A stretch of 63,865 bases of DNA, filler included, from Welwitschia mirabilis (taxonomy: Eukaryota), in the NCBI GenBank assembly GCA_051453625.1. It is 5 parts of one record of this genome, joined end to end, with 100 filler letters (N's around TTAATTAATTAA, not from the genome) between each part and the next. Parts side by side here need not be neighbours in the genome. Positions count along the whole stretch, not along the records: positions 1 to 12,442 come from JBOZIK010000001.1; positions 12,543 to 30,060 come from JBOZIK010000001.1; positions 30,161 to 52,742 come from JBOZIK010000001.1; 2 more parts are not named here. One strand, given 5' to 3'. How positions within the stretch are numbered: position 1 is the first letter of the stretch; each line of letters starts with the position of its first letter. Made by a program: the position numbers and the translations under genes. Under the pieces are notes generated by a model. It ran no database searches and was not told the DNA's origin. It worked only from the letters and a program-made list of their open reading frames with translations. Below are positions 4,943 to 46,790 of the stretch, one piece after another.

Positions 4943-7900
4943 TGTAACACTCTTGAATTTTCACTCAAATTGCATCTAATTTTTTTTTAAAATTATTAAT
5001 TAATTACATAATTCACTGATACATTGGATCAATTGGGTTACAATTAAAAGACATACTCTAAATTACCCATAAGCTATCCCTTAAAAAAACTATATGATGA
5101 TAGCTCACCTGACCAACACCATAGTCTAACTTAAGAACATCTAGAAGACTCAATTAGGAACACAGAATAAAGGTATGAAGTCACACTAAAGTGGATGATT
5201 AGCCTAAAATGAGTAACCATGCCTATGTATCCTTTTCTAGAGGAGATTATACTAGACATGGTTCTATCTTGGATCTTATCTCACCACTAATATATGTACA
5301 TGTGTGATAGGTCCAGGTGATTAATATCATTAAGAAAATGAGCTAACAAAATGCTAGATCTAATCAAGACACAACATCGATATAAATCCACAAAAACTAA
5401 TCATATAATATATATCCATATAAAATATAGAAAATAACTAGGTAAGTATCACATGGATCTCTAGTTTAATCATTCATTAGCCACTACTCTTAGGCCATGA
5501 TCTTACAAGTCCATATATTAGTAGGCTTGACCACACATGGCTCATGTGAATCGATCTTGTATAATACCACTATCTAGATGTACCCTTCACTTGGCAACTA
5601 CATAACCTTATTATGAGGATCGTCTACATGTATCATACCATCATCCGTAGATCAATTATATACAATTGCATCCTCTATGACATGTGTCCGCCACTGGGTA
5701 AAACATGACCTCTTAGTTATGTAGTCGATCTCCTACTAATTAACCATCCATATCATATATTGTAAATCGACCATATGCTTGCTCCTTAAAGGAGCTCACC
5801 CATCTCTAGGTAAATCATGACCTCTTAGTCATGAAGGTCAATCTCCCATCCTACATCATCCATATGTATGCCTTTCATAAATGCTACCTTTTGTAAAGTT
5901 TGGGACATACTAAACTAATCCTTTTATAATGAACAAAATAGATATAGAAATAGATAATGTGTATCAGATAAAAACATCAAATCTATAAGTCTATATGTCA
6001 CTAGATTAGAGATCTGGATCAATTAACATCTAGTACAAATAAATGATGATGAAAGACACAAATATACGAATCCACTATATAATATACTATTCTCATATGT
6101 CATCATAATAGTTGTATTATGTCCATTATAAGTCAATTTACATTAACTATCATAATCAAATTATTATCATATCGATTATTAATCTATCTTACATACATCT
6201 GTAGATCATCACTATCCAATCAACTAAGATTAAAGTATGTCTTAGTCATCAATGTCATTATTATAGCCAGGTGTATTTATATTTAGGTTATTAGTTGAAG
6301 ATAATTACTACCTTAAAGATTATTTCAAATGATATCACACACACATCCAAGACCTTCCAAGGCAACCTAATAATCTCATTAATATCATAAGGATTAACAT
6401 CAGTATCCAATCTCATTGTGTACTCGCATGTATCATTAAGCATGATTAGAACATTAAGATAGACGATTCATCACCAACAAGCAAGAGAGTATGACCATTT
6501 GAGTAATAGTTACTAAGATGATAATCGCCTTAGTTAGATTTTATTATAGTTAATCATGATTAAGGATAGTTAAGTGTTACATCCCATTTATCAATCATTT
6601 ACACATGTAGTTCTTTGTTTAGGTCCTAATAGAATCCATCATACTTTCACTGCGTAACTATGATATCTAGATTAATATAATTATGGATATAACACTCTAG
6701 GGGTTATGGGCCCATTATTCATTTTAATTAACATAAATACAGATCCATAGTATTATTTATCTATCCTTCTATTCATTAGGAATATAATATTAATACTTAT
6801 TAGTCATTATTTATCATTAGGATTGGTGTAACTTATATTCATGCTTGTTTCCCATTCCATATGATGTCTAATATCTTAAAGGAAGATTAATTAAGTAATT
6901 CTAAACACCATTACTTATTAATTTTGCCATGCTTTTGTTATCATCATAATTAAGCCTTTAGTTTACACTTTACTGCTACATAAGACTCATGTTATTATGT
7001 TAATCATATCACTATAATGCTACTAAATATGTTATTACATTGTCATTAGATATTTGCCAAGGTTGTTTAAACAAAAGTTTTGTTAATTAATGAAACCTTA
7101 CAATTGTATTACATAACTCATGTGTCAACAACCTTAAGTAAAGAACAAGAGGTTTCTAACAAGATGCTTGTAGATATCTATTATGTTTCCTATATTTCTA
7201 TTATAACTAATGTCATTAACACAATATTCATTAATAAATAGAAATCTACATTTATATATACATATATATTTCTACTATCTTCCATTATCATACTATATGC
7301 AATTTTGCTAATATGAAACTTACTAACTATAACTTATAAATCTATGGTTATAATATTAATATCACAACTTAGGAGATACCAAATTAAGAAGGATATAGCA
7401 TACAAATTGTGCTAATAAGCAAATTCATCATAAATAAAGGTTGGACCATAATATTAAATTAAAAATTATAATATTACAAGGTGAGCTTAAAACCTTGATT
7501 CTCATTTACTTCCTTTTCATTTTACTATATCATATCAATATAATTGCGTAGGATTACCCCTTTATGTTTTAGTCTATCCATCCTGTCCTTTATCCTGTAT
7601 TTCTAAATGGTTATATAACTAGTTTTTATATATGTAATTCCATGTATAATTATTCCAAAATTTCTATCATTATACTTCACCTTTTAGCATTAAATTTCTT
7701 AACACTTTGCCTATCCATTAGCCCTCAGTATTTACCTTTTTATGATATGTTATATTTTCTATTTTATACTATCATCACCTTTATTTAATCTTTACCCCTT
7801 AATGTTTACTTCTATGCCTTATTTTCATTTACTAAGAAGTTTTCCATTTACTTATAAAATTAGTTTCACTCCTTTATACTTTTAAAGTGCATATTCTTAT

Positions 7901-10900
7901 AAATCTATTTAAAGCACTATGGAAGGATAAGTATGTAGATAGGATAAAGGTATACAATTCTTGACTTTGCTAGGTTTTATTCAACTTTGACCATGGTTTG
8001 GATGACAAATCCAAGATTACTAGGCTAACATACTACTAACGATATATTTATTTAATAAACCATTAAAATATTTTTAAAAAGTGAAAATTAATAAAAGGAA
8101 GGACATGTTAAATATATAATAACATTTTTATCATAAATTTCCACATGTTATTTTATAAGACTTTGTTATTCATCTTTTCTACCTTTACTCCTATTATATC
8201 TATAACTAAGAATATTAAGAGGTGAGAAGCCATATAATTTATTTCTCACCACTTAATATCACCCTTGACATCTTCTTATATATATACCATATCATCTATA
8301 AGTATTAACCTTATATATATATATAATTTGGTACTTACTTATTACTTCTGCATAATATAATTTTCTATATAATATTTATTATGATATTTACCTTTATGAA
8401 ATATAATTTACTATACAATTTTCTTAGACCTTTACAAAATATAACTTACAATAGCTTATGGCCCCTTCTTATCCTTTCAACATTAATAACTGTATTTTTT
8501 GTTCCCAAAGAATGCAAGCTTAAGCCCTCTTTTCAAAATTTGATTCATGCATGATGGACACGAGTGAAATCCTCCTTTCCCCACGTGTCTCACGCGTAGC
8601 CATTTCAGCCCCTAAGACTCTCAAGTCCCCCTTATCCGAGCTCCAACCCCTCGTTTCCATAACGCCGTCCCGTTTTTCACCTCAACGTCTCACAATGGGT
8701 CTCCTTTGTCGGTGTCCGTTCTCACAATCTCACGGCGTTTCTCTGCACCAGTGTCCCTCCTTTCGGTGCACCATTCGTGCTCATGACACCGCTCCTTCAG
8801 TTATTTTTCATCTACGCGCTCATGTTTAGATGCAAGGCAATAAAGGGTATACACTATTTAGCCATGCAAATGAAGTATAAAAACATGTATAGAGGGTCTA
8901 TGAAATTCAAACATAGAGAAATTAATTGCTAGACTAGTGTTACTTCTAACACAAAAATATCTTTTTAAAATAATAAACCTACTTGTAGAAATAAATATTG
9001 CTTGCTAACTTCTTGGCTTTAGTTGAAGAATAATAGCATCTTCCAACCTAGAAGACCTAAACATACATTTCAATAATTGAAGAAAATCTTCTACGAAACT
9101 TAGAAGTTTAATAGAGGAACTTAGAAGATAAGCCAAAACTAAGAGTTCTGACATAAGGAAATTTAACAAGAATAGTTTAGATTTAGACACACATAAGCAT
9201 ATTCTCTAATTATTTAATAATAAATGCAATGCTATACTGTTAAACATCTAAAGAAAATCACCTTTACTTCATATGAGAAAAGCATAATTCCAACTATATT
9301 CAAAAATTGTATTTTGTAAAGCCTTTATTTTAACAGAAAGATCTTTGTTCTTAGTAACTAAATAAGCTAACTGCAACTATCATATCTATTTTAATGTTTA
9401 ATTAAAAAGGTTTAATAAATAGAAAAAGGCTAATGGACTTATCTCATAGGCTGAAGTTGAAAGAGAGATCATCCTTCTTCTCCTTAATAGGAACTCCCTT
9501 CTTCATCCTTTTCTTCAATGAACCACAGTGGATGAATGTAGTCATTAATTGTTATGGGAATTGTAGAGTCTAACCCTCTTCCAATTGCAAAGGGTAGATT
9601 TTAATGGTTAACTAAATTTAACCCTACAAGTCACTTGTCTCTATGCATGAGTCCATCATGCATAGAGCCATCTTCTTCTCATGCATAATGCCACATCCTT
9701 AATATGCAGCCACCTTGCCACCTCACCAAGAGTTTGATGCCATATATAACTTGACATTGCCACCTATAATCATTTAGTAAAATTCTCCATTTAATATTAC
9801 TAACATATAACATTTTTTATATTCCAGTTAATACTTAAGGCATTTTAATTTAAGCTAATCTATTATATCTTAATTAATTATTACTTACTAACCAACCATT
9901 TAATAACCATATCCTTACTCCTTAATCATTTATATTATTATATTTTATTTATTAGCTATTAGTTATATAATATTGACATTAAGACATAATTCACAATGCC
10001 ATTCAAAACATCCAAGATCTTAAACTTTTTCATGATTATACTAACTAATAAAAATAATATACTTATCATATATTCTTAACTAAATTATTAATACATTTAA
10101 CCAAAAAGATCTATTTCTAATATTATAATTCCATTAATACTCATTAATCATATATTATGATTTTAATAACATTTTAACCTTCCCTTTAATTTCTTAACCA
10201 CAAACCTTATTTATTTAACAAGAATAGTTTAGATTTAGACACATGTAAGCGTATTCTATAATTATTTCAAATGATATCACACACAAATCCAAGACTTTCC
10301 AAGGCAACCTAATAATATCATTAATATCATAAGGATCAACATCAGTATCCAATCTCATTGTGTACTTGCATGTATCATTAAGCATGATTAGAACATCAAG
10401 ATAGATGATTCATCACTAACAAGAATGAGAATATGACAGTTTGAATAATAATTATTAAGCTCATAATCGCCTTAGTTAGAGTTTATTATTGTTAATCATG
10501 ATTAAAGACAATTAATTGTTAAATCCCATTTATCAATCATTTACACATGTAGTTCTTTGCTTATGTCCTAATAAAATCCATCATACTTTCACTGTGTAAC
10601 TATGATATCTAGATTAATCTAATTATGGATATAACACTCTATGGGTTATGGGCCCATTATTCATTTCAATTAACATAAACATAGATCCATAGTATTATTT
10701 ATCTATCCTCCTATTCATTAGGAATAAATAGTATAACTTATTAGTCATTATTTATCATCAGGATTGGTGTAATTTATATTCATATTCATTTCCCATTCCA
10801 TATGATTTCTAATATCTTAAAGGAAGATTAATTAAGTAATTCTAAACACCATTACTTATTAATTTTGCCATGCCTTTGTTATCATCACAATTAAGCCTTT

Positions 10901-12756
10901 AGTTTACACTTTACCACTACATAAAACTCNNNNNNNNNNTACTAAATATGTTATTACATTGCCATTAGATATTTGCCAAGGTCGTTTAAACAAAATTTTT
11001 TGCTAATTAATGAAACCTTACAATTGTATTACATAACTCGTGCATGAACAACCTTAAGTGAAGAACAAGAGGTTTCTAACAAAATGCTTGTAGCTATCTA
11101 GTATGTCCCCTATATTTCTATTATAACTAATGTCATTAACATAATATTCATTAACAAATAGAAATCTACATTTACGTATACATATATATTTCTACTATCT
11201 TCCATTATCATACTGTATGTAATTTTGCTAATATGAAACTTACTAACTATAACTTATAAATCAATGGTTATAATATAATATCACAACTTAAGAGATACCA
11301 ACTTAAGAATGCTATAGCATACAAATTATGCTAATAAGCAAACTCATNNNNNNNNNNNNNNNNNNNNNNNNNNNNNNNNNNNNNNNNNNNNNNNNNNNNN
11401 NNNNNNNNNNNNNNNNNNNNNNNNNNNNNNNNNNNNNNNNNNNNNNNNNNNNNNNNNNNNNNNNNNNNNNNNNNNNNNNNNNNNNNNNNNNNNNNNNNNN
11501 NNNNNNNNNNNNNNNNNNNNNNNNNNNNNNNNNNNNNNNNNNNNNNNNNNNNNNNNNNNNNNNNNNNNNNNNNNNNNNNNNNNNNNNNNNNNNNNNNNNN
11601 NNNNNNNNNNNNNNNNNNNNNNNNNNNNNNNNNNNNNNNNNNNNNNNNNNNNNNNNNNNNNNNNNNNNNNNNNNNNNNNNNNNNNNNNNNNNNNNNNNNN
11701 NNNNNNNNNNNNNNNNNNNNNNNNNNNNNNNNNNNNNNNNNNNNNNNNNNNNNNNNNNNNNNNNNNNNNNNNNNNNNNNNNNNNNNNNNNNNNNNNNNNN
11801 NNNNNNNNNNNNNNNNNNNNNNNNNNNNNNNNNNNNNNNNNNNNNNNNNNNNNNNNNNNNNNNNNNNNNNNNNNNNNNNNNNNNNNNNNNNNNNNNNNNN
11901 NNNNNNNNNNNNNNNNNNNNNNNNNNNNNNNNNNNNNNNNNNNNNNNNNNNNNNNNNNNNNNNNNNNNNNNNNNNNNNNNNNNNNNNNNNNNNNNNNNNN
12001 NNNNNNNNNNNNNNNNNNNNNNNNNNNNNNNNNNNNNNNNNNNNNNNNNNNNNNNNNNNNNNNNNNNNNNNNNNNNNNNNNNNNNNNNNNNNNNNNNNNN
12101 NNNNNNNNNNNNNNNNNNNNNNNNNNNNNNNNNNNNNNNNNNNNNNNNNNNNNNNNNNNNNNNNNNNNNNNNNNNNNNNNNNNNNNNNNATCTTCTTATA
12201 TATATATATACCATATCATCTATATGTATTAACCTTATATATATATATATAATTTGGTACTTACTTATTACTTCTGCATAATATAATTTTCTATATAATA
12301 TTTACTATGATATTTACCTTTATGAAATATAATTTACTATACAATTTTCTTAGACCTTTACAAAATATAATTTACAATAGCTTATGGCCCCTTCTTAACC
12401 TTTCAACATTAGTAACTGCATTTTTTGTTCCCAAAGAATGCANNNNNNNNNNNNNNNNNNNNNNNNNNNNNNNNNNNNNNNNNNNNTTAATTAATTAANN
12501 NNNNNNNNNNNNNNNNNNNNNNNNNNNNNNNNNNNNNNNNNNTAACCAAAAAAATCCATTTCTAATATTATAATTCCATTAATACTCATTAATCATATAT
12601 TATGATTTTAATAACATTTTAATCTTCCCTTTAATTTCTTAACCACAAACCTTATTTATTTAATCTATCAACCAGAGGTAATCAAGATCCCAATCCAAAC
12701 ATAAACCTAACTAACCACACATATGATCGAGCACACTATAAAAGCAGGGTATTACA
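4943..12756 (-). repeat. 3' LTR of element A (~5.4 kb core plus an internal duplication at 10218-12442)
   Basis: 4943-6455 aligns with 12878-14388, 6460-8825 with 35263-37375, and 8825-10218 plus 12543-12756 with 45253-46790. Ends ...GGGTATTACA at 12756. Confidence 0.85.
12443..12542. other. Artificial 100-bp scaffold spacer (Ns with TTAATTAATTAA); also at 30061-30160, 52743-52842 and 62178-62277
   Basis: The same 12-mer sits centred in exactly 100-bp N blocks four times. It is palindromic and gives stops in all six frames. Confidence 0.95.
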
Positions 12757-12877
12757 TCCTTTCCCCCTTAAGAAGTTTCCTCCTAGAAATTGCCATTAGA
12801 CACCAATGAAATGAACATATTACTTTTTGTATTAACTCAACTCACTCTGGATCAAATCCATAGCTTTGATACCAAAG
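12757..12877 (-). other. Entire internal domain of element A (121 bp): PBS (tRNA-iMet) at 12863-12874 and PPT at ~12757-12772
   Basis: Minus strand reads TGGTATCAAAGC ... CTTAAGGGGGAAAGGA, followed directly by TGTAATACCC. Confidence 0.85.
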
Positions 12878-14388
12878 TGGAACACTCTCAAATTTTCACT
12901 CAAATTACACCCAAATTTTTTTAAATCATTAATTAATTACATAATTAACTAACATAGTGGATTAATTAGGTTACAACTAAAAGACATACTCATAATTACT
13001 TATAGGCTATCCCTTAGCAGAGTTATATGATGATAGCTCACTTGACCAATGCCACATCCTAACTTGAACATCTAGAAGATTCAATTAGGAACATACAATA
13101 AAGGTGTGAAGTTACGATTGAGTGGGTGATTCACCTACATCAAGTAACCATGGCTATGTAAACTCATCTAGAGGAACTCAGACCACATGTAGTTTTGTCT
13201 TGGACCTTTTTTCTATTACCATCAATACACTTAGGTGTATGATAGGTCTAGATGGTCCGTATCAGTGAGCAAATAGACTAACAAAATTTTAGATTGAATA
13301 AAGACACAAAATCCATATAAATCCATAGAAAACATCATATAATATATATCTATATAAAATATAGGAAACAACTAGTTAAGTATTCTAGGGAGCTCTAATC
13401 CAGCCATCCATTTTTCACTACTATGGGGCTATGACCTCATAGGTCTATATATAAGCCAACTTAATTACACATGAATCATGTGAATCGATCTTATATTATC
13501 ACTATCTGTGCGTGTCCTTCACTATACTACCATATGACCTCATCATGAAGATCATCCACATATATCATACCATCATCCATAAATCGACTGTGTGAAGTTA
13601 TCTCTTTTATGAGGCTCACTTACCATTGGGAAAGACATGAACTCTTAGTTATGTAGTTGATTTCCCACCAATCAACCATTCATATCACATATTATAAATC
13701 AATCATATGCTTGCTCCTCAATGAAGCTCATACACCTTTGGGTAAAGCATGACCTCTTGATCATGAAGCTTGATCTCTCACCATACATCATTCATATATA
13801 TGCCTTTTGTAAAGGCAACCTTCCACAAAGATTGGAACATACTAAATTTCTCCTTTTATAACCAACAAAATGAATATAAATATAGATAACATATATCACA
13901 TAAAAACATAGAATTTATAAGCTCGTAAGACACTAGATTAGAGATCTATATCAATTAGGATCTAGTACACATGAATGATGATCAAAGACACAAATCTAAA
14001 AATACAATATACAAGATACTATTTTTGTATGCCATCATCATTAGTGTATTACATATATTATAAATTAATTTACATTTATTATCATGATTAAATCATTATC
14101 ATAACCAATTATTAATCTATCTGACGTATACCTTTAGATCATCATTAGCTGCTTAGGCTGATATTAGCCTATGTTTTAGTCATCAATATCATTAGCATAA
14201 CTAAGTATATTTTTAATTAGGTTATTAATTAAGGATAATTAATATATTAAAGATTATTTCTAATGATATCACACACAAATGCAAGATCTTCCAAGGTAAT
14301 CCAATAGTGTCATTAACACCATAATGATCAATATCAGTATCTAGTCTTATTTTATGCTCATAAGTATCATTAACCATGATTAGAACAT
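12878..14388 (-). repeat. 5' LTR of element A, segment 1 (interrupted by element B)
   Basis: Starts TGGAACACTCTCAAATTTTCACTCAAAT, matching TGTAACACTCTTGAATTTTCACTCAAAT at 4943. Confidence 0.85.
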
Positions 14389-15356
14389 TGATGGGTTCTT
14401 ATGTGGTAAAATAAATGCAGAAAATATTATAAAGTAATATGTTGAAAACAATACAAAACCTATGCTGCTATTAACCTAAAATAAGCTCACACCATTAAAT
14501 AAAGATAATCAAAGGCTTACTAAATAATTAGTTGAGATTAACCATTTAGTTCAAAATGCATCATTAACCATTTATTTTAAAATGCATCATTATGATTATG
14601 TCATGATGAAGTTACTTAAACTAGTCAGGTTGGTTTATTACTATTGCATTATTATGTACATATACTACAATAGGGGGAAATGAAGAAACTAGTAAAACAT
14701 GATAGAAATCATATGATACACTGAACAATAATTATTTTGTAAATACTGTTAATTATTCAAGTTTATGTTCAGCTGTAGAAACAAGAGCCAATAGAAATAG
14801 TATTACTTTTTCAAGTAATAGAACATGCACAAAATGATATTCAAATATATGATTTTCAGCGTAATATTGAGATACCAATTGTTACATAAAGATGTACTAA
14901 GTCTTTTTCATTTGTAGGTAACACTTTAGAGTATGGGAGATGCTCTTGTACCTTTTGTAGAATAGCTAGAGCTTCCCTTATTAACCTTCTTATTGAGTTT
15001 ATTCCTAGAGATTTTTGCCAAAAAGATCCCACCTTTAATGGTGATCACTTTCTTATACACCTATTTATTTTTCTATTTTCTTTCTTTACTTCTCAGGGAT
15101 AGGTTTATAATCGAGGTTTTTATTGATTTTTCATCACATCAGCTTACTTTCTTATCTTCATGCTAAATGGCATTCTGCATCTGTATCTCAATAATAAAAA
15201 TGTATATACTACCCTACTAACATACTAACTAAATAATAATTTCATTAGTGAGTACAAATATAAAGAAATACATATATTGTTATTTAAAATGCATAATTAT
15301 GAAAATTAAAAAATTTCATTACTAAGTAAAGTTTGCATCAAAATTAGTCATCATCA
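14389..15356 (-). repeat. 3' LTR of element B (~970 bp)
   Basis: Collinear with 34309-35257 and abutted by the reverse-complement PPT GTTCCCCAAGCTCAAG at 15357-15372. Confidence 0.9.
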
Positions 15357-16441
15357 GTTCCCCAAGCTCAAGGTTTTATTAGTCCCTTAGTAGACAAATA
15401 TATACAAAAGAAAGAGAGAAAGATTCAGGTTAGGAATGCTTAAAACACTAAATTTCGAAAGGATAGATCTCCTTTAGCATGTTCATAGTACAAGAAACTT
15501 AGTAAAGTAGAAGCTGTAGATTTTGGTTCTACCAATTTAGTACTTTATAATTGTCCATCCCTTTTAAATTTAAAATTAGCACTTTTAATCTTAATGATTG
15601 TATAAATGTGATCATGATTATCTTGGCTTACATTAACCACTTTATATTCTGTAGACCATGAATTTCTTATGTATAAGTCATAAAGCTCTGTATAAAAACT
15701 TCTTATTGAGCAAATTCCTTCTGAAAATCTAACCCATTTGCTTTAACTGCTTTTACCTCTTTGTTTCCTGGGTGATTTTCTATTTTGATTTCATTCTTCT
15801 CATGTTTGACTTCTTTTAGGTCCTTAATGATGTGGCTTACTGTTCGGTTTTCTCTAAAGAAGGGTTTAGGCCAAGTTTAACTTACTTCCACTAAATCTTC
15901 CAACACCTTTTAAGAGTCTCCTAAGGTTTGGTTTAAGAGGTTACCTCTACAAGAGAAATCTAAAAGTTACTTGGTACGACTATTTAATNNNNNNNNNNNN
16001 NNNNNNNNNNNNNNNNNNNNNNNNNNNNNNNNNNNNNNNNNNNNNNNNNNNNNNNNNNNNNNNNNNNNNNNNNNNNNNNNNNNNNNNNNNNNNNNNNNNN
16101 NNNNNNNNNNNNNNNNNNNNNNNNNNNNNNNNNNNNNNNNNNNNNNNNNNNNNNNNNNNNNNNNNNNNNNNNNNNNNNNNNNNNNNNNNNNNNNNNNNNN
16201 NNNNNNNNNNNNNNNNNNNNNNNNNNNNNNNNNNNNNNNNNNNNNNNNNNNNNNNNNNNNNNNNNNNNNNNNNNNNNNNNNNNNNNNNNNNNNNNNNNNN
16301 NNNNNNNNNNNNNNNNNNNNNNNNNNNNNNNNNNNNNNNNNNNNNNNNNNNNNNNNNNNNNNNNNNNNNNNNNNNNNNNNNNNNNNNNNNNNNNNNNNNN
16401 NNNNNNNNNNNNNNNNNNNNNNNNNNNNNNNNNNNNNNNNN

Positions 16442-17131
16442 GTTCATAAGTAGAGGCATAGTCCTCGTTAGGTAATTGTTAGAAGTTTGTGACTTCTTTC
16501 TTATGCTTCTGGATGGTTGTTTCACTCATGAATGTCTTTATGAAGGCTTCTTAAACTTGACTCTAAGATTTAAGGCTCTTATGGGGAATTGTTCTACGCC
16601 AAATTTTTGCTTTATCTCTTAAGGTGATAGGAAAGATAACAATGTAGGTTCTATCACTTATTCGTTTTTTACCCTTTTTGGAAGTAAGGATAAGTTGTTC
16701 AATTTTGATAATGTGTTGTAAAGGATCTTCATCAGGATCTCCACTAAAGTTAGGATAAGCATTCAAGTTTCAAAGTTCTACATCATCATCGGGAGGTAAG
16801 TCGAAAGAATTTTGGATTTCATATTTTTTATTTGCAATAAGATCTCTCAAAGTAGAATGAGTATTGGGTTGAGAAGAAGTAGAAGTAAGGGTTCAATAAT
16901 AGAAAGTGGATTTCAAAAGATAGGTTGTTTAAGCTTTTGATTAGAGGTCGACTTAGTAGCAAAATCAGACTTTGCAGAATTAAAAGTGGAAATTGCAGGA
17001 AATTCTAAATCTTACATACCTTCGCTATTTTGATCTATATATATTTCAAAATCTATCAAATCTTCTCTGATGTTTTCAGTAACTAAATATTACTCTCTCT
17101 GCTATTTTTCCCTTTTTCCAATTTTAACCAT
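16442..17131 (-). pseudogene. gag: Athila gag N-terminal region, disrupted
   Basis: Contains YPNFSGDPDEDPLQHI...IFPITLRDKAKIW (retrotransposon gag motif) and is paralogous to 53852-54450. Confidence 0.85.
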
Positions 17132-18466: not shown

Positions 18467-18469
18467 AAT

Positions 18470-32187: not shown

Positions 32188-32252
32188 TCTTTAGGGATGA
32201 GTGGAGCAGAGATCTATTAGGATCTATTGCTTAACCTCACTCTGATACCAAT

Positions 32253-33930: not shown

Positions 33931-34290
33931 AATCTCGATAATCTTCCTAATAATATCCCATTAGGACTTTCTTTTCAAGCCTTTTTTTCTAAACTATTTA
34001 AGAATATTTTATTTATGAATGAGATGACATAAGAATGGTATGTAATTATTACTTAAATTCATTCATAAATTTGGAAAAGATTTGTTCCTTTACCACATTT
34101 TCAAGGGTGACTTCATCCTCTATGAAATCTTCTTCTTCCACTTCTATTTTAATTTTATTTATAGTTTACTCATTTAGACCATATTTATGAGGTTTTTAAC
34201 ATACCCACCTTTTTCATCTTATCATTTTCCTTGGCTATCTTTTTTAATCATAGTTTTTTTTCATCTCTGCTAGTCGACTTTAGAGCTACT

Positions 34291-34308: not shown

Positions 34309-35257
34309 TGATGGTTGATTATGTGGTGTAATAAATGCAAAAAAAATTATAAAATAATAAAAAATAGTGCTAAAAAATGTAGAAACTATGTTTCTATTAA
34401 CCCAAATAAGCTCACATCATTAAATAAAAATAATCAAAGGCTTACTAAAGAACTAGTTAAGATTTAACCATTTAGTTTAAAAAGCATCATTATAATTATG
34501 TTATAATGAAGTTACTTGAACTAGTAAGGTCATTTTATTACTACTAAGTGGTTAGGTACATATAATATAAGAGGGGAAAATGAATAAAGTAGTAAAACAT
34601 GATAGAAATTAAATGAGACACTAAACAATGCTTATTTTTAAGTACTGTTAGTTATCCCAGTCTATGTTTAGTTGCACAAATAGGAGCAAATAGAAATAGT
34701 ACTACTTGTTCAAGTAATAGGACATGCAAAAAATGATATTCAAAATATGCTTTTTAGCTTAATATTGAAATACCAATTTTTACATAAAGATGCGCTAAGG
34801 CTTATGTTTTCATTTGCAGGTAACACTTTAGAATATGAGAGATGTTGATGTGCCCTTTGTAGGATAGCTAGAGCTTTCCTTCTTGACTTCCTTATTGAGT
34901 CTATTTCTAGAGCTTTTTGTTAAAAGGATTTCTACTTTAGTGGTAATCCCTTTATGATACCCCTGTCTATTTTTATGTTTCCTTTTTTCGATCCTTAGGG
35001 ATAAGCTTATAGTTGAGGTTATCACTGTTTTTTCACCACCTTAGCCTTCTTTCTCATCTTCATGCCAAATGGTATTCTATATCTGTAACTTAAGAATAAA
35101 AATGTATATACTAATCTGATAACATACTAACTAACTAATCATTTAATTAGTGAGTACATTTATAAAGAAAAACATCTATTGTTATCTAAAATGCATAATT
35201 ATGAAAATGAAACCATTTATTACTAAGCAAAGTTTGCATCAAAGTTAATCATCATCA
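34309..35257 (-). repeat. 5' LTR of element B
   Basis: TGATG...CATCA, collinear with 14389-15356. Confidence 0.9.
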
Positions 35258-35262
35258 AACAT

Positions 35263-37375
35263 TAAGTTATACTATTCATCAACAACAATTAGGAGAATAC
35301 AACCATTTAAACAATAGTCATTAAGATTGTAATCTTCTTATGTAAATTCTATTAAAGCTAATAATAATTAAGGATAGTTAATTGTTATATCCCATTTTTA
35401 TCAATTATTTACACATTTTATTGTGTATTTAGGTTCTAATAGAATACTATGCAACTTGATATTTAGATTAATTTAATTATGGATATAACATTCTAGGGGT
35501 TATGAACCCACTATTCATTTTAGTTAACATAAAGATCAGTCCATAATATTATTTATCTATACTCATAATCATTAGAAACATAATAGTATAATTTACTAAT
35601 CATTAGTTGTTATCAAGATCAGTGTAACTTATATTTATACTTGTTTACCATTCCATATATTTCTAACATTCTAAAAAAGATTGATTCAATAATTTTAAAC
35701 GCAATTACTTATTAATTTTGCTATTCCTTTGTTATCATTACAAATAGGCCTTTATTTTGTACTTTACCACTATATAAGAGTAATGTTATTATGTTAATCA
35801 TATTGCTGTAATGCTATTAAATATTTCATTACATTACCATTAGATATTTGTCAAGGTTTTTTAAATGAGGTTCTTTGTTAATTAATGAAACCTTACAATT
35901 ATATACCTACTTGTGCATGAATACTCTTAAGTAAAGAATGAGGGATTTCTAGCAAGATGCTGGTAGCTATCTATTATGTCCCATATATTTTAATTAATGT
36001 TATTAACATAATATTCATTAATAAAAATACATCTACATTTATATATACATATATATTTCTACTATCTTTCATTAACATATTATGTGTAATATTGCTAATA
36101 TGAAGCTTACTAACTATGACTTATAAATTCATGGTTATAATATTAATATCATAACTTAGGAGATACATATCAAATTAAGAATGGTATAGCATACAAATTA
36201 TGCTAATAAGCAAACTAATCATAAATAAAGTTTAGATCATAAAATTAAATTTAAAGGTTGTACTATTATGAGATGAGCTTAAAACCCTAGTTCTCATTTA
36301 CTCCCTTTTTAGTTTATTATACCATATCAATATAATTGCCTAGGTTTAGCCATTTCTATTTTACTCTATTCTTCCTATCTTTTATCTTGTATTTTTCAAT
36401 GGTCATATAACTAGTTTCTATATATTTGATTCCATGTGTAATTATTCCAAATTTTTTATCATTATACTTCACCTTTTAGCATCACATTTATTAACACTTT
36501 GCCCTTCCATTATCATCTCCTTTAATTAATCCTTATCCATTAATGTTTACTTCTATGCATTATTTTCATCTAGTAAGAAATTTCTCATTTACTTATACAA
36601 TTAGTCTTAATTCTTTATAATTTTAGAGTCCATATTCTTATAACTCTATTTAAAAGAACTATGTAAGGGTAAGTATGTAGAGAGGATAAAGGTATACACT
36701 TTTTAAGTTGCTAGGTTTTATTCAACTTTGACCATGTTTTGAGTACCAAATTTAATATTGATAGGCTCATATGATACTAACAACATATTCATTAAATATT
36801 ACATTAAAACGTATTTTATAATACTCTATTATTTATCTTTTTTACCTTTACCTCTTATTATATCTATAACACTAATATATTAAGAGGTGAGAAGCCATAT
36901 AATTTATTTTCTTCTACTTAATATTATCTTTACCTTCTTTTATTTATCTTTACAAAATATAATTCACTATATATTTTTTTTACTATGTTATTTACCTTTA
37001 CAAAATATAATTTACTATACATTATGGTATCCCTTTTATCCTTTCAACATTAATGACTGCATTTTTACTTTTTAAAAAAAGAAAGCTTAAGAATTATACA
37101 ATTTTTTTTTCAAAACTTCTCACATGGCTCAAGGAGATTTACCTCCATCTTTTTCAAAATTTGATTCATTGCATGGTAGAAAGGTGGAAAACCCTCCTTT
37201 CAATCCCTTATTTCCATATCAATGTCAGATTTCTCACCTCATGATAATGGCTCTCCTTCATCAACATCCATCCTTATAATCTCGTGACATTTCTCTATTC
37301 TAATGACCCTTTTTGTAATGCATCATTAGTGCTCACAACACTCCTCCTTAGTTATTTCTCATCTAGGTAGTCACA
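35263..37375 (-). repeat. 5' LTR of element A, segment 2
   Basis: Resumes homology to ~6460-8825 immediately after TSD AACAT. Confidence 0.85.
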
Positions 37376-37430
37376 TTTGGTTTTAGTAGTGCTAATGGTT
37401 AGCTCACAGTTCTAATAACTTCCTACTTAT

Positions 37431-37732
37431 TATTGGATATACAGTTCTCATGCCTAGCCCAATAAGTGGGTAAATATGATGGGTTTCAGTTTCCACCTAA
37501 GTTATGGCTTTTAGTGTAAGTCAACAATTAGTATCAAAGCCATGGTTGTTGGCTGGTCTTGGGTTTGAGTCTTCCCAGTGGCTTCCCAATTCATGTGAGC
37601 ACTTTGCATATGGATTAAGGGAAAGATTATTGGCTATGCGGTCCCCATGCCTAGCCTAACAAGTGGGTAATATGATGGGTTCTAGTTTCCACCTAAGTCA
37701 TGGCTTTTTATGTGATGGTAAATGGATCAACA
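37431..37732 (+). mobile_element. TRIM (terminal-repeat retrotransposon in miniature), ~300 bp
   Basis: Direct repeats at 37431-37526 and 37628-37732 (TATTGG...TCAACA), PBS TAGTATCAAAGC at 37529-37540, PPT AAGGGAAAGAT at 37617-37627, 101-bp internal domain. The flanks CTTAT/CTTTC match only partly. Confidence 0.85.
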
Positions 37733-38759
37733 CTTTCAAGATGCTACTCACTATGCCAAACCCTTCATAAGATAGAAAGAACATAAAAGGATGCCCTTTA
37801 TCAAAAATGTAGGCTAGGGTTTAGGTTTTCTCTTATTGTTTTCTATGTTTTTTTTAATTGTTTTCTCTTATTGTTACTTGCAAGGCATGATATTCTTGGT
37901 TTCAAAGATATTAGAGGATTCTTCTTATGGTGTCACAGTTGGATTCCCTTGGTACCAATGATTCTTGCTAGAGCTATTCTCCTCCCATGATAAGCCTTTT
38001 CTATGCTATTTTACTACCTCATGATACACTACCTCCTTAATCATTAACATATTTTAGCATTCAAACACCTCCATTTGTTCTTTCATTAGGCTATTCTCCT
38101 ATCATAGACCCTTTTTCTTAGGCCATGTTTATATTTGGATGCAATTTCTAAAAACCTCAACAATAGCTATAGATTCATATCTTTGCATAAAGATGATCAT
38201 ATAGGTTAGGATTATAGTGGTTTTCTATTTATTTCCTTCTTTTTAGGAAAGGGTTTTTTCTTATATACTATTTACATTACTAGTTTAGTAAAATACCTAC
38301 ATGTAGAAAAAACACATGATGTAATTTGTTAGAGGGAGAAATGCAACACCGAGGTAGATAGATGACACCAATGCCATTTTTAGCCTATGGCCTATTTTCA
38401 TGCTAAAACCTTCTAATTTAATTTTGAGTAAAGATATTCTGAAGAAACATTGGATGCTTGTGATGGATTTTATGCTATAACATGTTAACATATAATTTCA
38501 TTAGGAAGTGAAGCCCTGCAATTTTTTTCTTTTCATTTTTAAAAGATACTAAGAGGCTTAGAGGAAGACTAAGGAAGCACACTCTTGCAAATACCCAATA
38601 CTATGCTCTCATATGAAATATTCAAATGGATTTATTTTGTAAGAGTAGTGATGCTTGTTTGATGTTAAAGTTTAGTGGAGGGGGTTTGTTAAGATGTCCA
38701 ATACAAGACAAGATAAAAGCCATACTATAAAAGAGTTCAATAAGAGAGAAAAATGCTAA

Positions 38760-41700
38760 TCACACCTCCTAAGACAATACCATTAAAGGCATTACACCCT
38801 AATAGACATTAGATTATAAAGTATTCATAAAAGAATCTCTAAAAACTTCTTTTACATCTCTTAATTGAATATTAACTAAATAAATGATAAGTATTTGATC
38901 CCCTCTAGAAAACTTATCAATCTAGTCCCCTAAAAAAGGCTTGATAATGATTCTTTCAAAGAAAAACATGCTTGCTACAAACAAAATTTATCATCCATCA
39001 TTAAATTTACTGTGAGAGCATCTTGCATTAGAATAGAAAAAGTGTAGGAGAAAGATATTCCAAACAAGCTAAATAACCAAGACAAAAGCTACTTAGTCAC
39101 TTGACAATCCCAAAATATGTGGCATTGAATTGGATTGGCATTGTCAAATTAAATTGATTTACTAATTGGAAGATCTTGATGAAGAAGAGACTAAAAGAAA
39201 AACTTGATTTTTGGTTTACTTAAGACTTTTATAATTTCTAAATCATGTCCTTCCATTTATCCTTTAAACAATCTAAATTCCAATTCTTACTCATTTGGGT
39301 CTAAAGATCATACTCATTTTCCAATCAAGAGTAAGCCTTTAAAAGAGAAAGGCGATACATGTTTTGATCATTTGGCCATAATCATTCATCTATCTAAGAA
39401 TCATTACCATTAAACCCATTAAAACTTCTTAGAATGAATTCCACATGTCTAATAAAGGGAAGATATCTCATCTAGAACTGCCGTTTGACTTTATAAGATT
39501 GTCATCTAAAGGATATGACTTCTTGATTATTGACTAATAATTGACCTATGTGAAGAAGTCCCTTTTGAGTCAAGGTCCTAGCTTTAGACTTGAAGTTCTA
39601 AACTAAAGGTAAAGAATTGAATTCAAAAGCTAGGGACCACCAAAAAAAGTGTAAATTCAAAATATTTTAAGAGAGACCCTAAGGCTTTCAAGTGAGATAG
39701 ATTTTAACTTTATTTTAGTAGCTCCAAGTTTGCTGGAAGAAATAAGAACCTCATAGCTTTACTTTCTCCTTGATCACCATCTAGTAAGAGTTATTTCAAT
39801 AGGAAGAGGATTAAACTTTTCCTTTAAAGACGTAATGTTTAAAGGTATCTTCCAAGCCTCATTTCCTTAAAAGAATTGAATAACCCATTTAAAAGTTAGA
39901 AGATGACCTTGTATAGAAATAGAAGGTATACCAAGATCTCCAACAATTTTATCTATAAGATAGATATCCTAGACTACTTGATGAAAAGATTTATGATTTT
40001 CCTTATCATCCTAGAGGTAACACAAAATTATTTTATTAATAAACTCTATAGCCTTCTTTGAAGGAGCCATAAAATTGGAATTGCACTTAAGATATGTTTT
40101 GTTATCACTAATTTTCCTACAAGAGAAAGAGGCTTAGAATCCCACTTAAGGATCTTATTTTGAACCTTTTTACTACATTTTATCAAAAATAATTGGAAGT
40201 GTCTTGAATAGTTCAAGGAATCCCTAAAAGAGAAAATTTATCTATTGGAGAAATCCACTTAAAAAGAAAAATGTTACACCAAGAATGCTAGGGTGAGAGA
40301 CTACTTCTAATAGCTTGAGTTTTATCCATAATGATTTTGGAGTTAAATGTCTTACAGTATATGGAAACCACCTCTAAATTAGCCAAAAAATTTTGCTCAC
40401 TCTCATCTAGAACAAGATAAGTATCATTAGTGAATTGACTATGAAGGACTTTAAAATCATTTGGAAGTGTGACTTCTCTAGGAATGAAATTATGCTTCTT
40501 AGCATTAACCATGGTTCCTAATAGATCTATTAAGATAATAAAAAGATAAGGAGCCAAGGGATAACCTTGTCTAATAGATTTTCCCAACTTGATATCAGAA
40601 GAGAATAGATCATTTATATAGGTAAAGAATCCTCTAATAAAAGTATTCCTATATGATCTTCAAAATCATCCCCAAGATTATGATTATTGATGAGGCATAA
40701 GAGATAATTCTAATCTAGTATATCATAAGATTTGAAAAAATCTAGTTTCAATAATAGATCCTTTCGAGAAGAAATGAAAGTGCAATTCATGCATTTCATA
40801 GTTGTAATAACATTGTCAAATATATATTTGTTTTTCATAAACATGATTTATTCCATTGTGATAAGATCAGGAAGAAAGGTCTTTAATTTATTATCTATAA
40901 CTTTTGTAATAATTTTATAGAGAACATTTAATAGAGTGATCGATTTTCAATTATTGATTAGAAAGTATCACTAGACTTAGGGATAAATTTAATTATTCTT
41001 GTATTTAGAGTTGTAACTAGGGAACCCTTATGAAGAGCTTTTGAGTATACTTAGTAAACATCATTAATTATATATCTTTATAAGTTCTTAAATAAGTTTA
41101 TAGGGAATCCATCTATAACTAAAGCATTTTCATCTTTTAATTGTTAAAGAGAAGTTGTAAGCTCAGCCTTTGATAAATGATTGTTACTTCTAAAGATTAG
41201 ATTTGTTAAGAAGAGGAGTTACATTAAGACAAAGATTTAAACTTTTTATGAAAATTGATCCTTTCTTAAAAATGCTAGGATAGTAAGACTAGAACTCTAA
41301 GAAAATGTCTTCTTGGATGATGAATAACCCTTTATTTGAATAAATGATATTCATTTAAGAAGAGGAAAAATTTCCTTTTAAAAAATTAAAACAATCAGGA
41401 AAAGCCTTGTCACTCATACAAAGTCAAGAAAGACAGCTTGTTGTTGTTAACTATGAGCCTTCTGATGCTCGATCTATCATAGCCTAGATTTAGTGGAGAC
41501 TAAAATTGAAAATTTTAAGTTTATGCCATTTTTCCCATTGACTATGGATTAATAAGTCTAAATATTATAAAGGAATTCCATCTTATAATGTTGAGATTTT
41601 CTAGCTAAGATTTTTTTCAAAGTGCTTAATTAGGTGTTGAACTCTAATAGATGCATCATTCCACTAGTTAATTTAATTATTCTTATCATTTGGTCTTAAA

Positions 41701-42670
41701 CATAAGTTCCAAAAGCATAAAATGAGATTTCATAAAGAGTGATTACATAAAAAGGACATGTTAAAAATAAAAGGTCTCAATGAAAGGAAGAATTTCTACA
41801 ACTTTAAACAAAACAAGAAATTGGAGAATGATTAAATAACACTTGAGAATAATCCATTTGAACTAGTATTTTTTTATAACTAAAAATGAACTATATTATT
41901 ACTAGATAAGTAATATTGATCAAGGTAGGAAGAGATATAGACATCTCCTAATCTAGCATTATTCTAAGTGAACCATCCTAAATTACTCATAGTTCTATAA
42001 TTATAATTACCATATTGAAGATTAAACTTATTTTAAAATTGGATCCAAGATAATAATACTAAAAGATATGGCCTCATAACTATCCTTGCTAAATTATCAT
42101 AAGGGTATTTAACCATATTAAAATCATCAACTATGATCCAGATAGCCTTTTGTAATGTTTAAGCAAGCCAAATTCATAAATTAGTGCTATCCTGACCTTG
42201 AAAAGGATCATAAATACATAAGAAGAAAAACATATTATTTAGGTAGTTGATGTAAGTTCAAACATAGTTTTCATTGTGATCTCTACCAGAATTTGTGATA
42301 CAACTTATTCAACTATGGTAAAGAATAAGATTTGCTCCTTCTTTACAATTATCATGATTGGTAAAATTGAACTAGCCATTTCCAAAAAGATTTTAACAAA
42401 AGGATTCAATGATAAAGCCTTGAATTTTAACTTCTTGCAAAAAAAATAAGTACATTTTATCTTTAGACTAACATATGGTTTCAGACTATTCTTTTTGTGA
42501 GGGAGTCTAAAAGGCCCCTTACATTTCAAGATATGCAATTCATGTTGAACAACTCAGAGGAGTATCCTCAACCTTTAACCATTTAAAAGAGTTTACTAAT
42601 TAAAAAATATTTTCTACAGGTTTGCTTGCCTCTTAAGATGGGAAACTTTAACATCACTATTCCATGTCAT
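38760..42670 (-). pseudogene. LINE ORF2 (APE endonuclease and reverse transcriptase), many stops and frameshifts
   Basis: WIIVDDFNMV (cf. WIIGGDFN), RLGDVYIS (RLDRFY), LFNHSP (LSDH-P), ALVIDGFP (APGPDGF), SITLLNVLYKII, LDFFKSYD, SIRQGYPLAPYLF, SQFTNDT (QFADDT). Confidence 0.88.
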
Positions 42671-42699
42671 ATTTGATTTCCTTCTTACATCTAAAAGAG

Positions 42700-44050
42700 T
42701 GGTTTCTCCTTAGTGACTAAAGCATAGATTTTTTTTGGTCTATTGTGTGGATACGATTTTCTTGTGTAGTAAGATTGCTAATTCCCTTTGGCCTCATTTG
42801 CATATGACCTTGTAATTTCTTTGTATGCTATAAAGAGAGATTAAGCTATGAATCCTCATTTTGCTATGAAGAAAAGCCATAATTCTTGAGACTATATTGT
42901 TTATTTATATTAAGAACACTTTCTATTAACTTAATTGATGGATTATATGCAGAACCTTTGCTTTTAAGTTTAGTTTCCACTTTTTCTACTAGTAATTTCT
43001 CTTTTTTTTAGTTTGTTTAACAATTTAGGATAATGGGATGAATATGATTGGACTCTTTATGGTAGTAACACTTACCAAGTAAAGCTAATTAAACTACTTT
43101 TTATATAATTACTTTTCTTTAGCTTTGAATTTAAACCTTTCTAGGAGAGGTTTATGTAAATTAAAAATAACACATCCTCTTCTGGAAGGACAGGTTCAAA
43201 TACCCATATAAAATTTCATACCCATCACTTGTCCTAACTAAGATGCTAAATTTTAATATGAGCCACAAAATAAGGAGTGAGTTCTATAAATCCAATGCAT
43301 ATTGGAATCTTACTTTGACTTTCTATTTCTAGATCAAAATTCTCCACCCCTAATTTGAGAATAAGATAGGAACCATAGGCATTCTAAATAATCTATTTTT
43401 TAACATAATATACCATTTCTTTTGTTTCAAAAAACCACCAATTAGATTAGAGACAAGAGTAATAATGACATTTTTATAACCCCATTGTTTCTGAATCTAG
43501 TCCTAAAAGTCTCCCACAAATGGTATTTTTCTAATGAAGAAACTCATAACATAAAGTTCCTTAAAAGTGTTAACAGTTTTATCATAGATATCTTTTGGAA
43601 TTTTAAATTCAATAGTTAACAGCTAGGTTTCCTTATTAACATTAAGTTGTTCAAATTTATCTAAAGCATTTGTAAGAACTTATTACATGTTAAAGTTCAA
43701 AGCTGATATGTGTTCATACTTACATCTTTTGAATGGATCTACCACATGCATTAGGCGTATGTACTTCAAACTAGCTTTACCATCTGTAAGCACATTAACG
43801 GTTTCTACTGAAAAAAATTTCTTTGGATTTTTTAATTTATTTTATGCAACACATGCACTATATTTTTTGCTTTTTAAGTTACCTTTCTCTATCCACTCTT
43901 TTTTTCCCTAATTAAAGGCTTCTAGCTCTTTTGCATGCATGGATATTTGCTAAATCCTGAGATGTCCTTTCAACCTTTGAATCCCTCAAACACACTATCT
44001 ACATAGAATAAGTGCCTACTAAGCAATGTTTTACATTTTACCAAACTGTA
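42700..44050 (-). pseudogene. LINE ORF1 (DUF4283-like RNA-binding region), degraded
   Basis: Minus-strand D*IQKQWG and ENFDLE...KIPICIGFIEL resemble the plant L1 ORF1 W-PNFDP...PVWV-F--LP motif. It lies upstream of ORF2. Confidence 0.55.
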
Positions 44051-44520
44051 CTTTTTTTCCTCCATTATGCAAACCTCTGCTTAGACTAGCCTTTGCTCTT
44101 AATCTCTCAAAATGCCTTTGTCTCTAAAAACATCTCTAAAAATGCCTCTATAATGCCTTCTAAAAATACCTTTGTCTCTAAAAATTCCTTTCTCTCTGAA
44201 AACACCTTCTAAAAATCCCTTTATCTTTGAAAAGGCCACTGAAAATGCCTTCTTGTCTAAAAATGCCTCTAAAAATTCCTCTAAAAATTCCTTCATATTT
44301 CAATGGATTTCATTGGATGTGAAAGCCTTACATGAGAGGGATGCCATACTAATTATGACATTTTGATATGGATTTGATTTTCTCCATTGTGCAAACCTCT
44401 TCTTAAACTAGCCTTTGCTCTTGGTCTTTAAAAACACCTTTTAAGAATGCTCTTGTCCTTTACTCTAAATATCTAAAAGTTCTCTTGTCCTTGTAAAAAC
44501 ATTCTTGTCCTTTTCTCTCG
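44040..44520. repeat. Tandemly repeated LINE 5'UTR with a 12-bp CTCTAAAAATGC-type minisatellite
   Basis: TCCATTRTGCAAACCTCT-CTTARACTAGCCTTTGCTCTT occurs at ~44061 and ~44384, with short CTCTAAAAA repeats between. Confidence 0.7.
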
Positions 44521-45252
44521 GTCTTAATCTCTATAGAAATATTTCTCTTTAGCATTCAAATCATAGTGAAAATGAACTTTACAATGCATTTAAAAATGAG
44601 AAATATTTTGGCATCTTCTGTTTGGCATTAAAGCTCATTATCTTTAGAGAAAATTGATATGTAACATTTTGAAAAGAAATTATTAACTAGAATTCTAAAC
44701 TTTTTTACTATATTTTTTTAATTTTAAATATACAATTTACCATTATTTTATGTGTATTACATGCTATTTTACTATGGATTCTTACTCTTAATTTTATAAG
44801 AGATTTCTCTAAAGCTTATGGGCTTTTTGAAGCTACTAACAATTATAATAGAAAAGAGATTTTTCCTAGTGAATTTTAAAGACATTTTAGTGAATCTGTT
44901 AGAGTATTTAATCACCTGAATTATTAAATATCTTAAATAATAAAAATAAAAAGTGAGGTTATGATTATTTAATCACATTAGGATTTTAATCTAAACAGAA
45001 CATTTACATAAATATTTTTAATAGTATATCCTACTTTGACACATTTTCTGGTGATTTGAGGTGCTTGCAAAGTAATCATCTAGACAAAGGAATAAGAAGT
45101 GATTGCATTCTAGTAGGAAAGAGCTTAAATGAAAGTTAAAAGAATAGTTTAATGCTAATCAAGTTGAATCTCTTAAATTTATCTAATTGTTTTAGTTCTG
45201 CTTTCTTGAAAGAGATTTATAGCAATGTTCTCTAGAATATGGTTAGATTTAA

Positions 45253-46790
45253 ATGTTTAGATGTAGGAAAACGAAATGTATACACTATTTATCCCTACAA
45301 ATGAAGCATAAACAACATTCTTAGAGGGTCTATAAGATTCAAATGTAAAGAAATTAATTGTTAGACCTGGTATTACTTCTAATATAAAGATATAATTTTC
45401 TAAAATATATAACTTACTTATAAAAATAAATATTACTACTTGCAAACTTCTTGACATTAGTTAAAGATTAACAACATTTTACAACTTAGAATACGTGAGC
45501 ATATATTTTAAATAATTGAAACCTAAAGAAGTTTAATAGAGGAACTTAAAACATAAGGTTTATATGTCTTATATGTGTTTATGGCATCTAGTTAACAATT
45601 TATAGCTTTTGTTGACTTTTATTCCAAAACTAAGAGTTCTAATGTAAGAAAGTTTAACAAGATTAATTTAGATTTAAACACACCTAAGCATGTTCTCAAA
45701 TTCTTTAATAATAAACTCAAAACTATAACACTAAACATATAAAGGTAATTACCTTAACTTCATATGAGAAAAGCATAATTCCAACTATATTTAAAAATTA
45801 TATTTTGCAAAGCCTTTATTTTAATAGAAGGAACTTTGCACTAGTAATTAAATAAGCTAAATATAACAATCATATCTATTTTAATATTTAATAAAAAGGT
45901 CTAATGAATAGAAAAAGGCTAATNNNNNNNNNNTCTCATAGGCCCAAGTTATAGGAGAGTCATCCTTTATCTCCTTAACAAAAACTCCCTCCTCCATCCT
46001 TTCCTCTAATGAACCATGGTGGATGAATGGAGTCATTAATTGTTATGGGAATTGTAAAGTATAACCCTTTTCCAATTACAAAGGGTAGATTTTAATGGTT
46101 AACTAAATCTAATCATGCATGCCACTTTTCTCATGCATAGAACCATCTTCTTTTCATGCATAATAGCACATCCTTAATATGTAGCCACCTTGTGATGTGC
46201 TACCATCTCACCAAGTGTTTAACACCATATATAATGGAACATTTCCAATCACAATCATTTACTAAAATTCTCCATTTAATATTATCAACACAAAACATTT
46301 GTTATATTCTAATTAATAGTAAAGGCATCTTAATTTAGGCTAATCCATTATATTTTAATTAATTATTACTTACTAACTAACCATTTAATAACCATATACT
46401 TACTCCTTAATCATTTATATTATTATACTTTATTTATTAGATATTAATTAAATGATATTAACATTAATACATAACTCACTATGCTATTCAAAATATCTAA
46501 GAACTTAAAATTTTTTATTATTAGACTAATTAACAAAAATTATATACTTATAGCCTTAACTTAACTAGTACTACATTTATCCAAAACATAACTCATTTAT
46601 AATATTATAATTTCATTATACTTATTAAACATATATTATTATTCTAATAACATTTTAATCTCCCTTTTACTCTCTTAACCATAAATCTTATTTAACTAAT
46701 TTATCAACTATAGCTAATAAAGACCACAATAGACACAAACTTAACTAACCACATGCCCTATCAAGAATGTGAAAAACATAGGGCATTATA
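45253..46790 (-). repeat. 5' LTR of element A, segment 3 (terminal)
   Basis: Aligns to 8825-10218 and 12543-12756 and ends GGGCATTATA before TSD CTTAA. Confidence 0.85.

Follow-up and report, generated by a model that had tools for sequence, protein, structure and literature searches.

The 63,865-nucleotide stretch of Welwitschia mirabilis DNA analysed here (hereafter the window; five joined parts of one record of assembly GCA_051453625.1) contains, at 4943-46790, a long terminal repeat (LTR) retrotransposon with two LTRs of more than 5 kb and an internal core of 121 bp. This element is an extreme and old addition to the known non-autonomous LTR retrotransposons that combine long LTRs with a short core, and its core is the shortest for such long LTRs among the described elements with which it was compared. 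The core retains exactly two mobility signals, a primer binding site (PBS) and a polypurine tract (PPT), each at the canonical distance from its LTR.

Structure, ends and age of the element

The element lies on the minus strand and spans 41,848 bp, bracketed on both sides by the target site duplication (TSD) CTTAA; the probability that five bases at two fixed ends agree exactly by chance is 0.002-0.003. Without the later insertions its length is about 10.6 kb, giving a ratio of length to twice the LTR of 1.011. Its parts are the following.

4938-4942, no strand: left copy of the TSD, CTTAA
4943-12756, minus: 3′ LTR as assembled, beginning TGTAATACCC at 12756 and ending AGAGTGTTACA at 4943
12757-12877, minus: internal core, 121 bp, without an open frame and without a Pfam or Rfam match
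12757-12768, minus: PPT, AGGGGGAAAGGA, abutting the 3′ LTR
12773-12791, minus: imperfect palindrome, AATTTCTAGGAGGAAACTT, closely preceding the PPT
[quoted passage not shown]
12863-12874, minus: PBS for the initiator Met tRNA, TGGTATCAAAGC, 3 nt (CTT) past the 5′ LTR
12878-14388, minus: 5′ LTR, core-adjacent piece, ending GTTCCA
35263-37377, minus: 5′ LTR, middle piece
45258-46790, minus: 5′ LTR, outer piece, beginning at 46790 with TATAATGCCC, a decayed TGTAATACCC
46791-46795, no strand: right copy of the TSD, CTTAA

The 5′ LTR (46790-12878) is split into three pieces and measures 5,159 bp after removal of 28.7 kb of later insertions, and the single unit of the 3′ LTR (4943-10218 plus 12664-12756) measures 5,369 bp. 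The two are collinear over their full length, with 4,035 of 4,914 aligned columns identical (82.1%, Kimura two-parameter distance, K2P, 0.208); piecewise global alignments gave 4,078 identical columns of 4,992 and 61 indels, the largest of 78 bp. TG or CA is kept at three of the four LTR ends, the outer end of the 5′ LTR reading TA. The preliminary description of this DNA had reported a CTTAA duplication around 41.8 kb and a 121-bp internal segment, and we recovered both at the positions listed above. Its statement that the LTRs are collinear stands for their whole length, but the left LTR is not a clean copy, since it carries a tandem duplication, and the identity is only 82%. It was silent on the minus orientation, the 28.7 kb of later insertions, the degree of LTR identity and the duplication with its filler in the 3′ LTR.

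The element is thus a real and old insertion, with LTRs 18% apart. At rates of 1.3e-8, 6.5e-9 and 2.5e-9 per site per year, the LTR distance of 0.208 would correspond to 8, 16 or 42 Myr, respectively, and the copy is almost certainly dead today. For the two nested LTR pairs that were measured along their length, identities are 83.5% and 79.7%, which makes them as old as the LTRs of the element that houses them, and therefore the whole nest is ancient.

The internal core and its priming signals

The imperfect palindrome AATTTCTAGGAGGAAACTT is presumably akin to a motif found at Tekay 3′ ends, which a search of the literature did not confirm and which was absent from the portion of the Medicago element sequences preceding the Tekay family. 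The PBS TGGTATCAAAGC matches the Met primer-site consensus at 11 of 12 positions (PMC3605345, supplement 1, available in part), and the PPT AGGGGGAAAGGA matches those of Tekay-assigned sugar beet families, likewise at 11 of 12 (PMC13570524, table 1.1), so that the initiator Met PBS and Tekay-type PPT of the preliminary description both hold. The hairpin around the PBS has a predicted energy of -16.9 kcal/mol, with a z score of -4.7 and none of 500 shuffles as good, in a segment that was chosen after the fold had been seen. Of 748 LTR segments of equal size 2 fold as well, and the four other PBS regions in the window fold at -3.3 to -9.3 kcal/mol, compared with -16.9 here. The core folded as a whole is no better than its shuffles (z -0.84).

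No trace of a coding region was found. Pfam returned no family in nine frames (six of 4943-10218 and the three sense frames of the core, with stops read as X), a read-through scan that covered the 3′ LTR unit and the core. In tblastn searches with five Gypsy pol proteins, matches were confined to nested or outside elements, and neither inspection by eye nor Pfam revealed a chromodomain remnant in the core. The possibility that the LTR conceals a decayed gag-pol was rejected on these Pfam and tblastn negatives. Rfam gave no match at the gathering score across the window and, for the segment 4900-14400, none at E values up to 1, although decay could mask a weak match. Two further candidates were discarded: the LTR is not a small element with short LTRs of its own, its unit ends being dissimilar in self-BLAST, and the locus is not a pair of tandem solo LTRs, because the spacer holds a PBS and a PPT in the orientation of the element.

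Probable derivation from the Tekay (Del) lineage

The U3 (unique 3′) end TGTAATACCC agrees at 9 of 10 positions with the commonest Del site, TGTAACACCC (PMC4029996). At the U5 (unique 5′) attachment site both LTRs have GAG at -8 to -10, which agrees with type A (GGG; type B is TTC) at two of three positions, too few to assign a type. The element shares with the Tekay/Del chromoviruses (Ty3/gypsy) a Met PBS at most 3 nt from the LTR, the type of PPT and the habit of the longest LTRs among chromoviruses, although a Met PBS is common to many lineages besides Tekay (PMC6317226, available in part). It also shares the 5′ CpG island of Del LTRs (PMC4029996), here kept in the 3′ LTR only. This GC-rich island (8443-8830, minus) occupies the 5′ half of the 3′ LTR, with 19 CpG in two 250-bp bins from 8443, in a window that is otherwise CpG-depleted; the matching bins of the 5′ LTR (37013-37378) have a single CpG left, the island being eroded. 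The 3′ LTR copy that bears the island may have stayed unmethylated, possibly as a promoter.

In contrast to Tekay/Del members the present element has no gag, pol or chromodomain, and its LTRs of 5.2-5.4 kb exceed the maximum of 4,831 bp among 2,187 Del elements from ten genomes (PMC4029996). Given that no coding region is available for a phylogeny of reverse transcriptase (RT), RNase H (RH) and integrase, we call it Tekay-derived and not a member of Tekay. Judged from its sequence, the Tekay-type assignment holds up, in agreement with published termini and PPTs. Ogre, the other lineage with very long LTRs, primes with a tRNA-Arg PBS (PMC2533021, available in part) and was excluded by the Met-type PBS.

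Comparison with known non-autonomous elements

[quoted passage not shown] As a claim of novelty this does not survive, given that multi-kb LTRs around a non-coding core of a few hundred bp are a described, multi-copy class, represented by sugar beet TRIMs and by Mtr77 of Medicago truncatula. In sugar beet, 115 non-autonomous LTR families form a size continuum (Maiwald et al., bioRxiv 10.64898/2026.03.01.708851, available in part; PMC13570524). We compared 14 of these 115, chosen as cases of long LTRs and a short core, with core sizes obtained by subtraction of medians. Eleven of them, TRIM-116 to -126 (modular group M16), comprise 63 full-length copies, 61 with a TSD, and have LTR medians of 3,352-4,600 bp, a Met PBS, TGTA...TACA ends and no domains, with cores of 331-593 bp (PMC13570524, table 1.1). 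TRIM-95 and -97 are of similar layout with LTRs of 2.1-2.3 kb, and TRIM-127 has LTRs of 5,533 bp and a core of 1,218 bp (same table).

All 14 families share with the Welwitschia element multi-kb LTRs, a short non-coding core, a Met PBS, TGTA...TACA ends and a 5-bp TSD. They differ in core size (331-1,218 bp versus 121 bp), in the ratio of length to twice the LTR (1.048-1.112 versus 1.011) and in LTR identity, which in the beet families is mostly at least 85% (bioRxiv 10.64898/2026.03.01.708851) and in the one old copy studied here is 82%. This comparison is one of tabulated features and not of sequence, except that the M16 PPTs agree with the present PPT at 7-8 of 12 positions.

Mtr77 has an LTR of 2,191 bp in an element of 4,668 bp, with 5 full-length copies and 26 strong hits; its non-coding internal domain is given as about 200 bp in the text and is 286 bp by subtraction, and it was classed as a LARD by a length rule, no PBS having been detected, in the available part of PMC2533021. 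Long LTRs and a tiny non-coding internal domain are common to both elements, whereas by its description Mtr77 is set apart by the missing PBS and by an LTR under half the present length.

TRIMs in the strict sense are smaller than 1 kb as whole elements, or 1.5 kb in a wider definition, with short terminal repeats (PMC4717578 and PMC7215508, both available in part), and most TRIM subfamilies have LTRs under 250 bp (PMC4717578). The Welwitschia element shares with classical TRIMs (Katydid, Cassandra, SMART) a core of about 100 bp cut down to PBS and PPT, comparable to beet TRIM-08 (81 bp) and TRIM-02 (104 bp; both by subtraction, PMC13570524, table 1.1). Its near-absent internal domain of 121 bp is thus that of a strict TRIM, but its size is not, at about 10.6 kb against less than 1-1.5 kb and with LTRs some twenty times longer. 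As in a LARD, it is non-coding and longer than 4 kb, but its 121 bp hold no conserved internal core domain; the founding LARD examples have a conserved core of several kb. Rfam showed neither a 5S rRNA-like domain nor a hammerhead ribozyme, the marks of Cassandra and of retrozymes. With LTR borders, PBS and PPT, no gag-pol and a TSD, it is a non-autonomous LTR retrotransposon in the broad sense of Maiwald et al. We found no report that combines LTRs above 5 kb and a core of around 120 bp, which is weak evidence of absence, as most subscription papers were outside the search.

Tandem duplication in the 3′ LTR and the assembly around the core

The assembled 3′ LTR is longer than its single unit owing to a tandem duplication of 3.9 kb, and a nearby spacer is one of four artificial ones in the window.

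10219-10260, plus: 42-bp junction filler, copied from 9167-9208 (38 of 42 identical)
10261-12663, minus: tandem second copy of LTR segment 6319-10218, interrupted by three gaps, 94% identical
12443-12542, 30061-30160, 52743-52842 and 62178-62277, no strand: artificial, non-biological gap spacers, each made of two blocks of 44 N on either side of a 12-base word that has stops in every frame

Between the two copies 1,358 of 1,444 columns are identical (K2P 0.06), and the ends of the filler carry the microhomologies TTTAA (5 bp) and ATTATTT (7 bp). We take the junction and its filler to be the product of templated break repair with template switching. Since the junction lies within one contig and has this appearance of templated repair, the duplication is probably a true feature of the genome that arose after the element had inserted. 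Its divergence is uneven, with mismatches in 77 of 1,076 columns of the first part and in 9 of 368 of the distal parts (Fisher p = 0.0005), for which gene conversion is one possible cause, and mixed reads or the presence of a second haplotype are others.

The sequence of the window is repetitive plant DNA, taken from a draft assembly, with 30% GC and a CpG observed/expected ratio of 0.26. It contains 19 N runs, including those of the four spacers of a nominal 100 bp, and the element span crosses 11 gap blocks that account for 13 of these runs, two pairs of which are each the halves of a 100-bp spacer. One contig, 12543-15988, takes in 214 bp of the 3′ LTR, then PPT, core and PBS, and beyond these 1,511 bp of the 5′ LTR. 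Because the core is inside one contig, the gap at 12443-12542, for which a true size of 1,581 bp is expected, did not create it.

Origin of the short core

In our reading, the element is probably Tekay-derived and non-autonomous and was gene-less already when it inserted, with its native core or with a slightly longer one trimmed later, having moved in trans. It is supported by a core that keeps precisely the two priming sites and by the existence of mobile families of like build. By general LTR-retrotransposon biology, the 5′ LTR would have driven an RNA of about one LTR length plus the core, for whose packaging and copying an autonomous Tekay partner would have supplied Gag, RT and integrase. 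Initiator Met tRNA at the PBS would have primed the minus strand, and the PPT would have served the plus strand in this role; the cDNA would then have integrated through its Del-type LTR ends to give the 5-bp TSD. The two insertions in the 5′ LTR are later damage, as is probably the tandem duplication in the 3′ LTR. We infer membership of a multi-copy family, an autonomous partner, and a core that was either native at 121 bp or a few hundred bp long and trimmed in place. It is possible, although we would stop short of calling it probable, that a multi-copy Tekay-derived family with LTRs of 5.3 kb has these 121 bp as its native core.

The preliminary description had named a mobile non-autonomous family and a single copy that lost gag-pol as the two possible origins, and these are the right alternatives. 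It is unlikely, in our estimate, that a full-length Tekay element inserted and then lost 5-6 kb of gag-pol through one or more genomic deletions in double-strand-break repair, the hairpin arm being fold-back filler. Such a history would place both breakpoints in windows of less than 100 bp. In a toy model built on our own assumptions, with one random deletion removing all of gag-pol from internal regions of 4,660 and 6,443 bp (the sizes in beet Tekay; PMC3605345, available in part), both signals and at most 121 bp were left in only 1-6 of 10,000 deletions. In addition, none of the 61 indels between the LTRs exceeds 78 bp, and multi-copy families of like layout are documented. On the other hand, an inverted repeat begins 6 nt past the PBS, the window contains further local duplications that are likewise old, and a late loss would explain why the copy escaped collapse to a solo LTR. 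Loss of gag-pol could also have taken place during a single round of reverse transcription, by a template switch or splice of a full-length Tekay RNA whose one cDNA integrated without founding a family. PBS, PPT and TSD would then be retained by necessity, and the ways in which non-autonomous elements may arise are discussed to include template switching (bioRxiv 10.64898/2026.03.01.708851), but the tiny internal remainder is left unexplained and direct evidence is lacking, so that we consider this origin very unlikely. The least credible explanation, to which we give hardly any weight, is an artefact of scaffolding that joined contigs from different haplotypes or family members, so that the pairing of the TSDs or the shortness of the core would be an accident. 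The assembly is a draft, with 13 of the window's 19 N runs inside the element and a spacer of nominal size 214 bp from the PPT, and the uneven divergence of the duplicated segment may have come from mixed reads or from the presence of a second haplotype. However, the core and both LTR junctions share one contig, whose LTR end is identical to the local 3′ LTR at 118 of 121 positions, compared with 86% between the two LTRs in that stretch (p about 1e-5). The 842-N gap also corresponds to the 841 bp predicted from the first duplicate copy, and the nested TSD AACAT together with LTR collinearity confirms the contig order across the 5′ LTR. The misjoin at 12443-12542 contemplated in the preliminary description is thereby largely answered.

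Several observations weigh against an element that was gene-less at insertion. The PBS hairpin may be a functional stem, but it may instead be the fold-back scar of a deletion. At a distance of 2.5 kb the same element carries a templated filler bounded by microhomologies and a duplication of 3.9 kb, and a nested Copia element (20722-28793) has no integrase match, which shows that the loss of long internal stretches is no rarity at this locus. With 11 of 12 positions shared, the PPT is nearer to beet families assigned to Tekay than to M16 (7-8 of 12), and consequently the element is not an M16 family; its core is also about a third of the shortest beet core with an LTR above 2 kb (331 bp). No second PBS-PPT junction was found in the window, which holds a single copy. 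Finally, long LTRs with short internal regions favour solo-LTR collapse (bioRxiv 10.1101/710657, available in part), and two identical 5-kb LTRs 121 bp apart should have collapsed readily, yet this copy survived. The Athila-like insertion in the 5′ LTR, being of similar age, may have protected it.

Later insertions and neighbouring repeats

Two later insertions split the 5′ LTR.

14389-35257, minus: Athila-like LTR element, LTRs at 14389-15356 and 34309-35257, 83.5% identical
37378-45252, no strand: insertion of 7.9 kb that lacks terminal repeats and has ACATT and ATGTT at its flanks

The first has the TSD AACAT at 14384-14388 and 35258-35262 and holds further Copia elements. We take it to be Athila-like from the patterns of its PBS, PPT and termini. 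The Athila rows in PMC13570524 (table 1.1) entered into this label as well. Within it, at 15775-19753 (minus), RT-RH remnants (19705-18497) stand upstream of a stretch resembling the neighbouring Gypsy sequence at 52843-54831, an arrangement that suggests rearrangement or double nesting. It also contains a nested Copia element on the plus strand (20722-28793) with LTRs 79.7% identical, the TSD CATAT and an extra frame at 26499-26903; within its one contig, gag and RT were matched and integrase was not, and we presume it to be SIRE-like. The flanks of the 7.9-kb insertion suggest two decay products of a single CpG-containing site. This insertion holds an RT fragment at 40291-40659 (minus), which we assume to be of the long interspersed nuclear element (LINE) type, and an 84-bp internal repeat at 37429 and 37626.

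The recognisable open frames of the window are retrotransposon pieces, with Pfam matches in 5 of 20 frames (Copia gag twice, RT twice and integrase once). Three protein searches with pol pieces of neighbouring Gypsy elements gave no hit, 5 hits at 52-55%, and 374 hits for an integrase, of which the best 120 were 42-51% identical and the named ones belonged to assorted flowering plants. One Copia family is present in two copies on the minus strand, up to 86% identical, at 2-2615 outside the element and at 29966-33956 nested inside it. Further local tandem duplications, 71-91% identical and each beside a gap, lie at 57814-62102, 22870-23875, 31060-32123 and 33031-33802 and include three copies of a Gypsy integrase region; they may be old biological events or a habit of the assembly.

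Implications for long-LTR, short-core elements

With the Welwitschia element, the size continuum already described for non-autonomous LTR elements is carried to its extreme, and long LTRs around a short core are seen in a further plant, apparently a distant one, and in a copy of great age. If the 121-bp core is native to a multi-copy family, this would be the most LTR-dominated mobile retrotransposon among those compared (99% LTR), and the minimal internal cis-core of a Tekay element would consist of a PBS in a 14-bp hairpin, a short palindrome and a PPT, with the packaging signal within the LTR itself or the PBS hairpin. The partner specificity and mobilisation of non-autonomous elements are described as an open question in the available part of bioRxiv 10.64898/2026.03.01.708851. 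If a family is confirmed, its aligned cores would reveal which internal bases a Tekay-type element requires in cis. Such families would leave mainly large solo LTRs behind, and would thus be mis-counted in repeat annotation.

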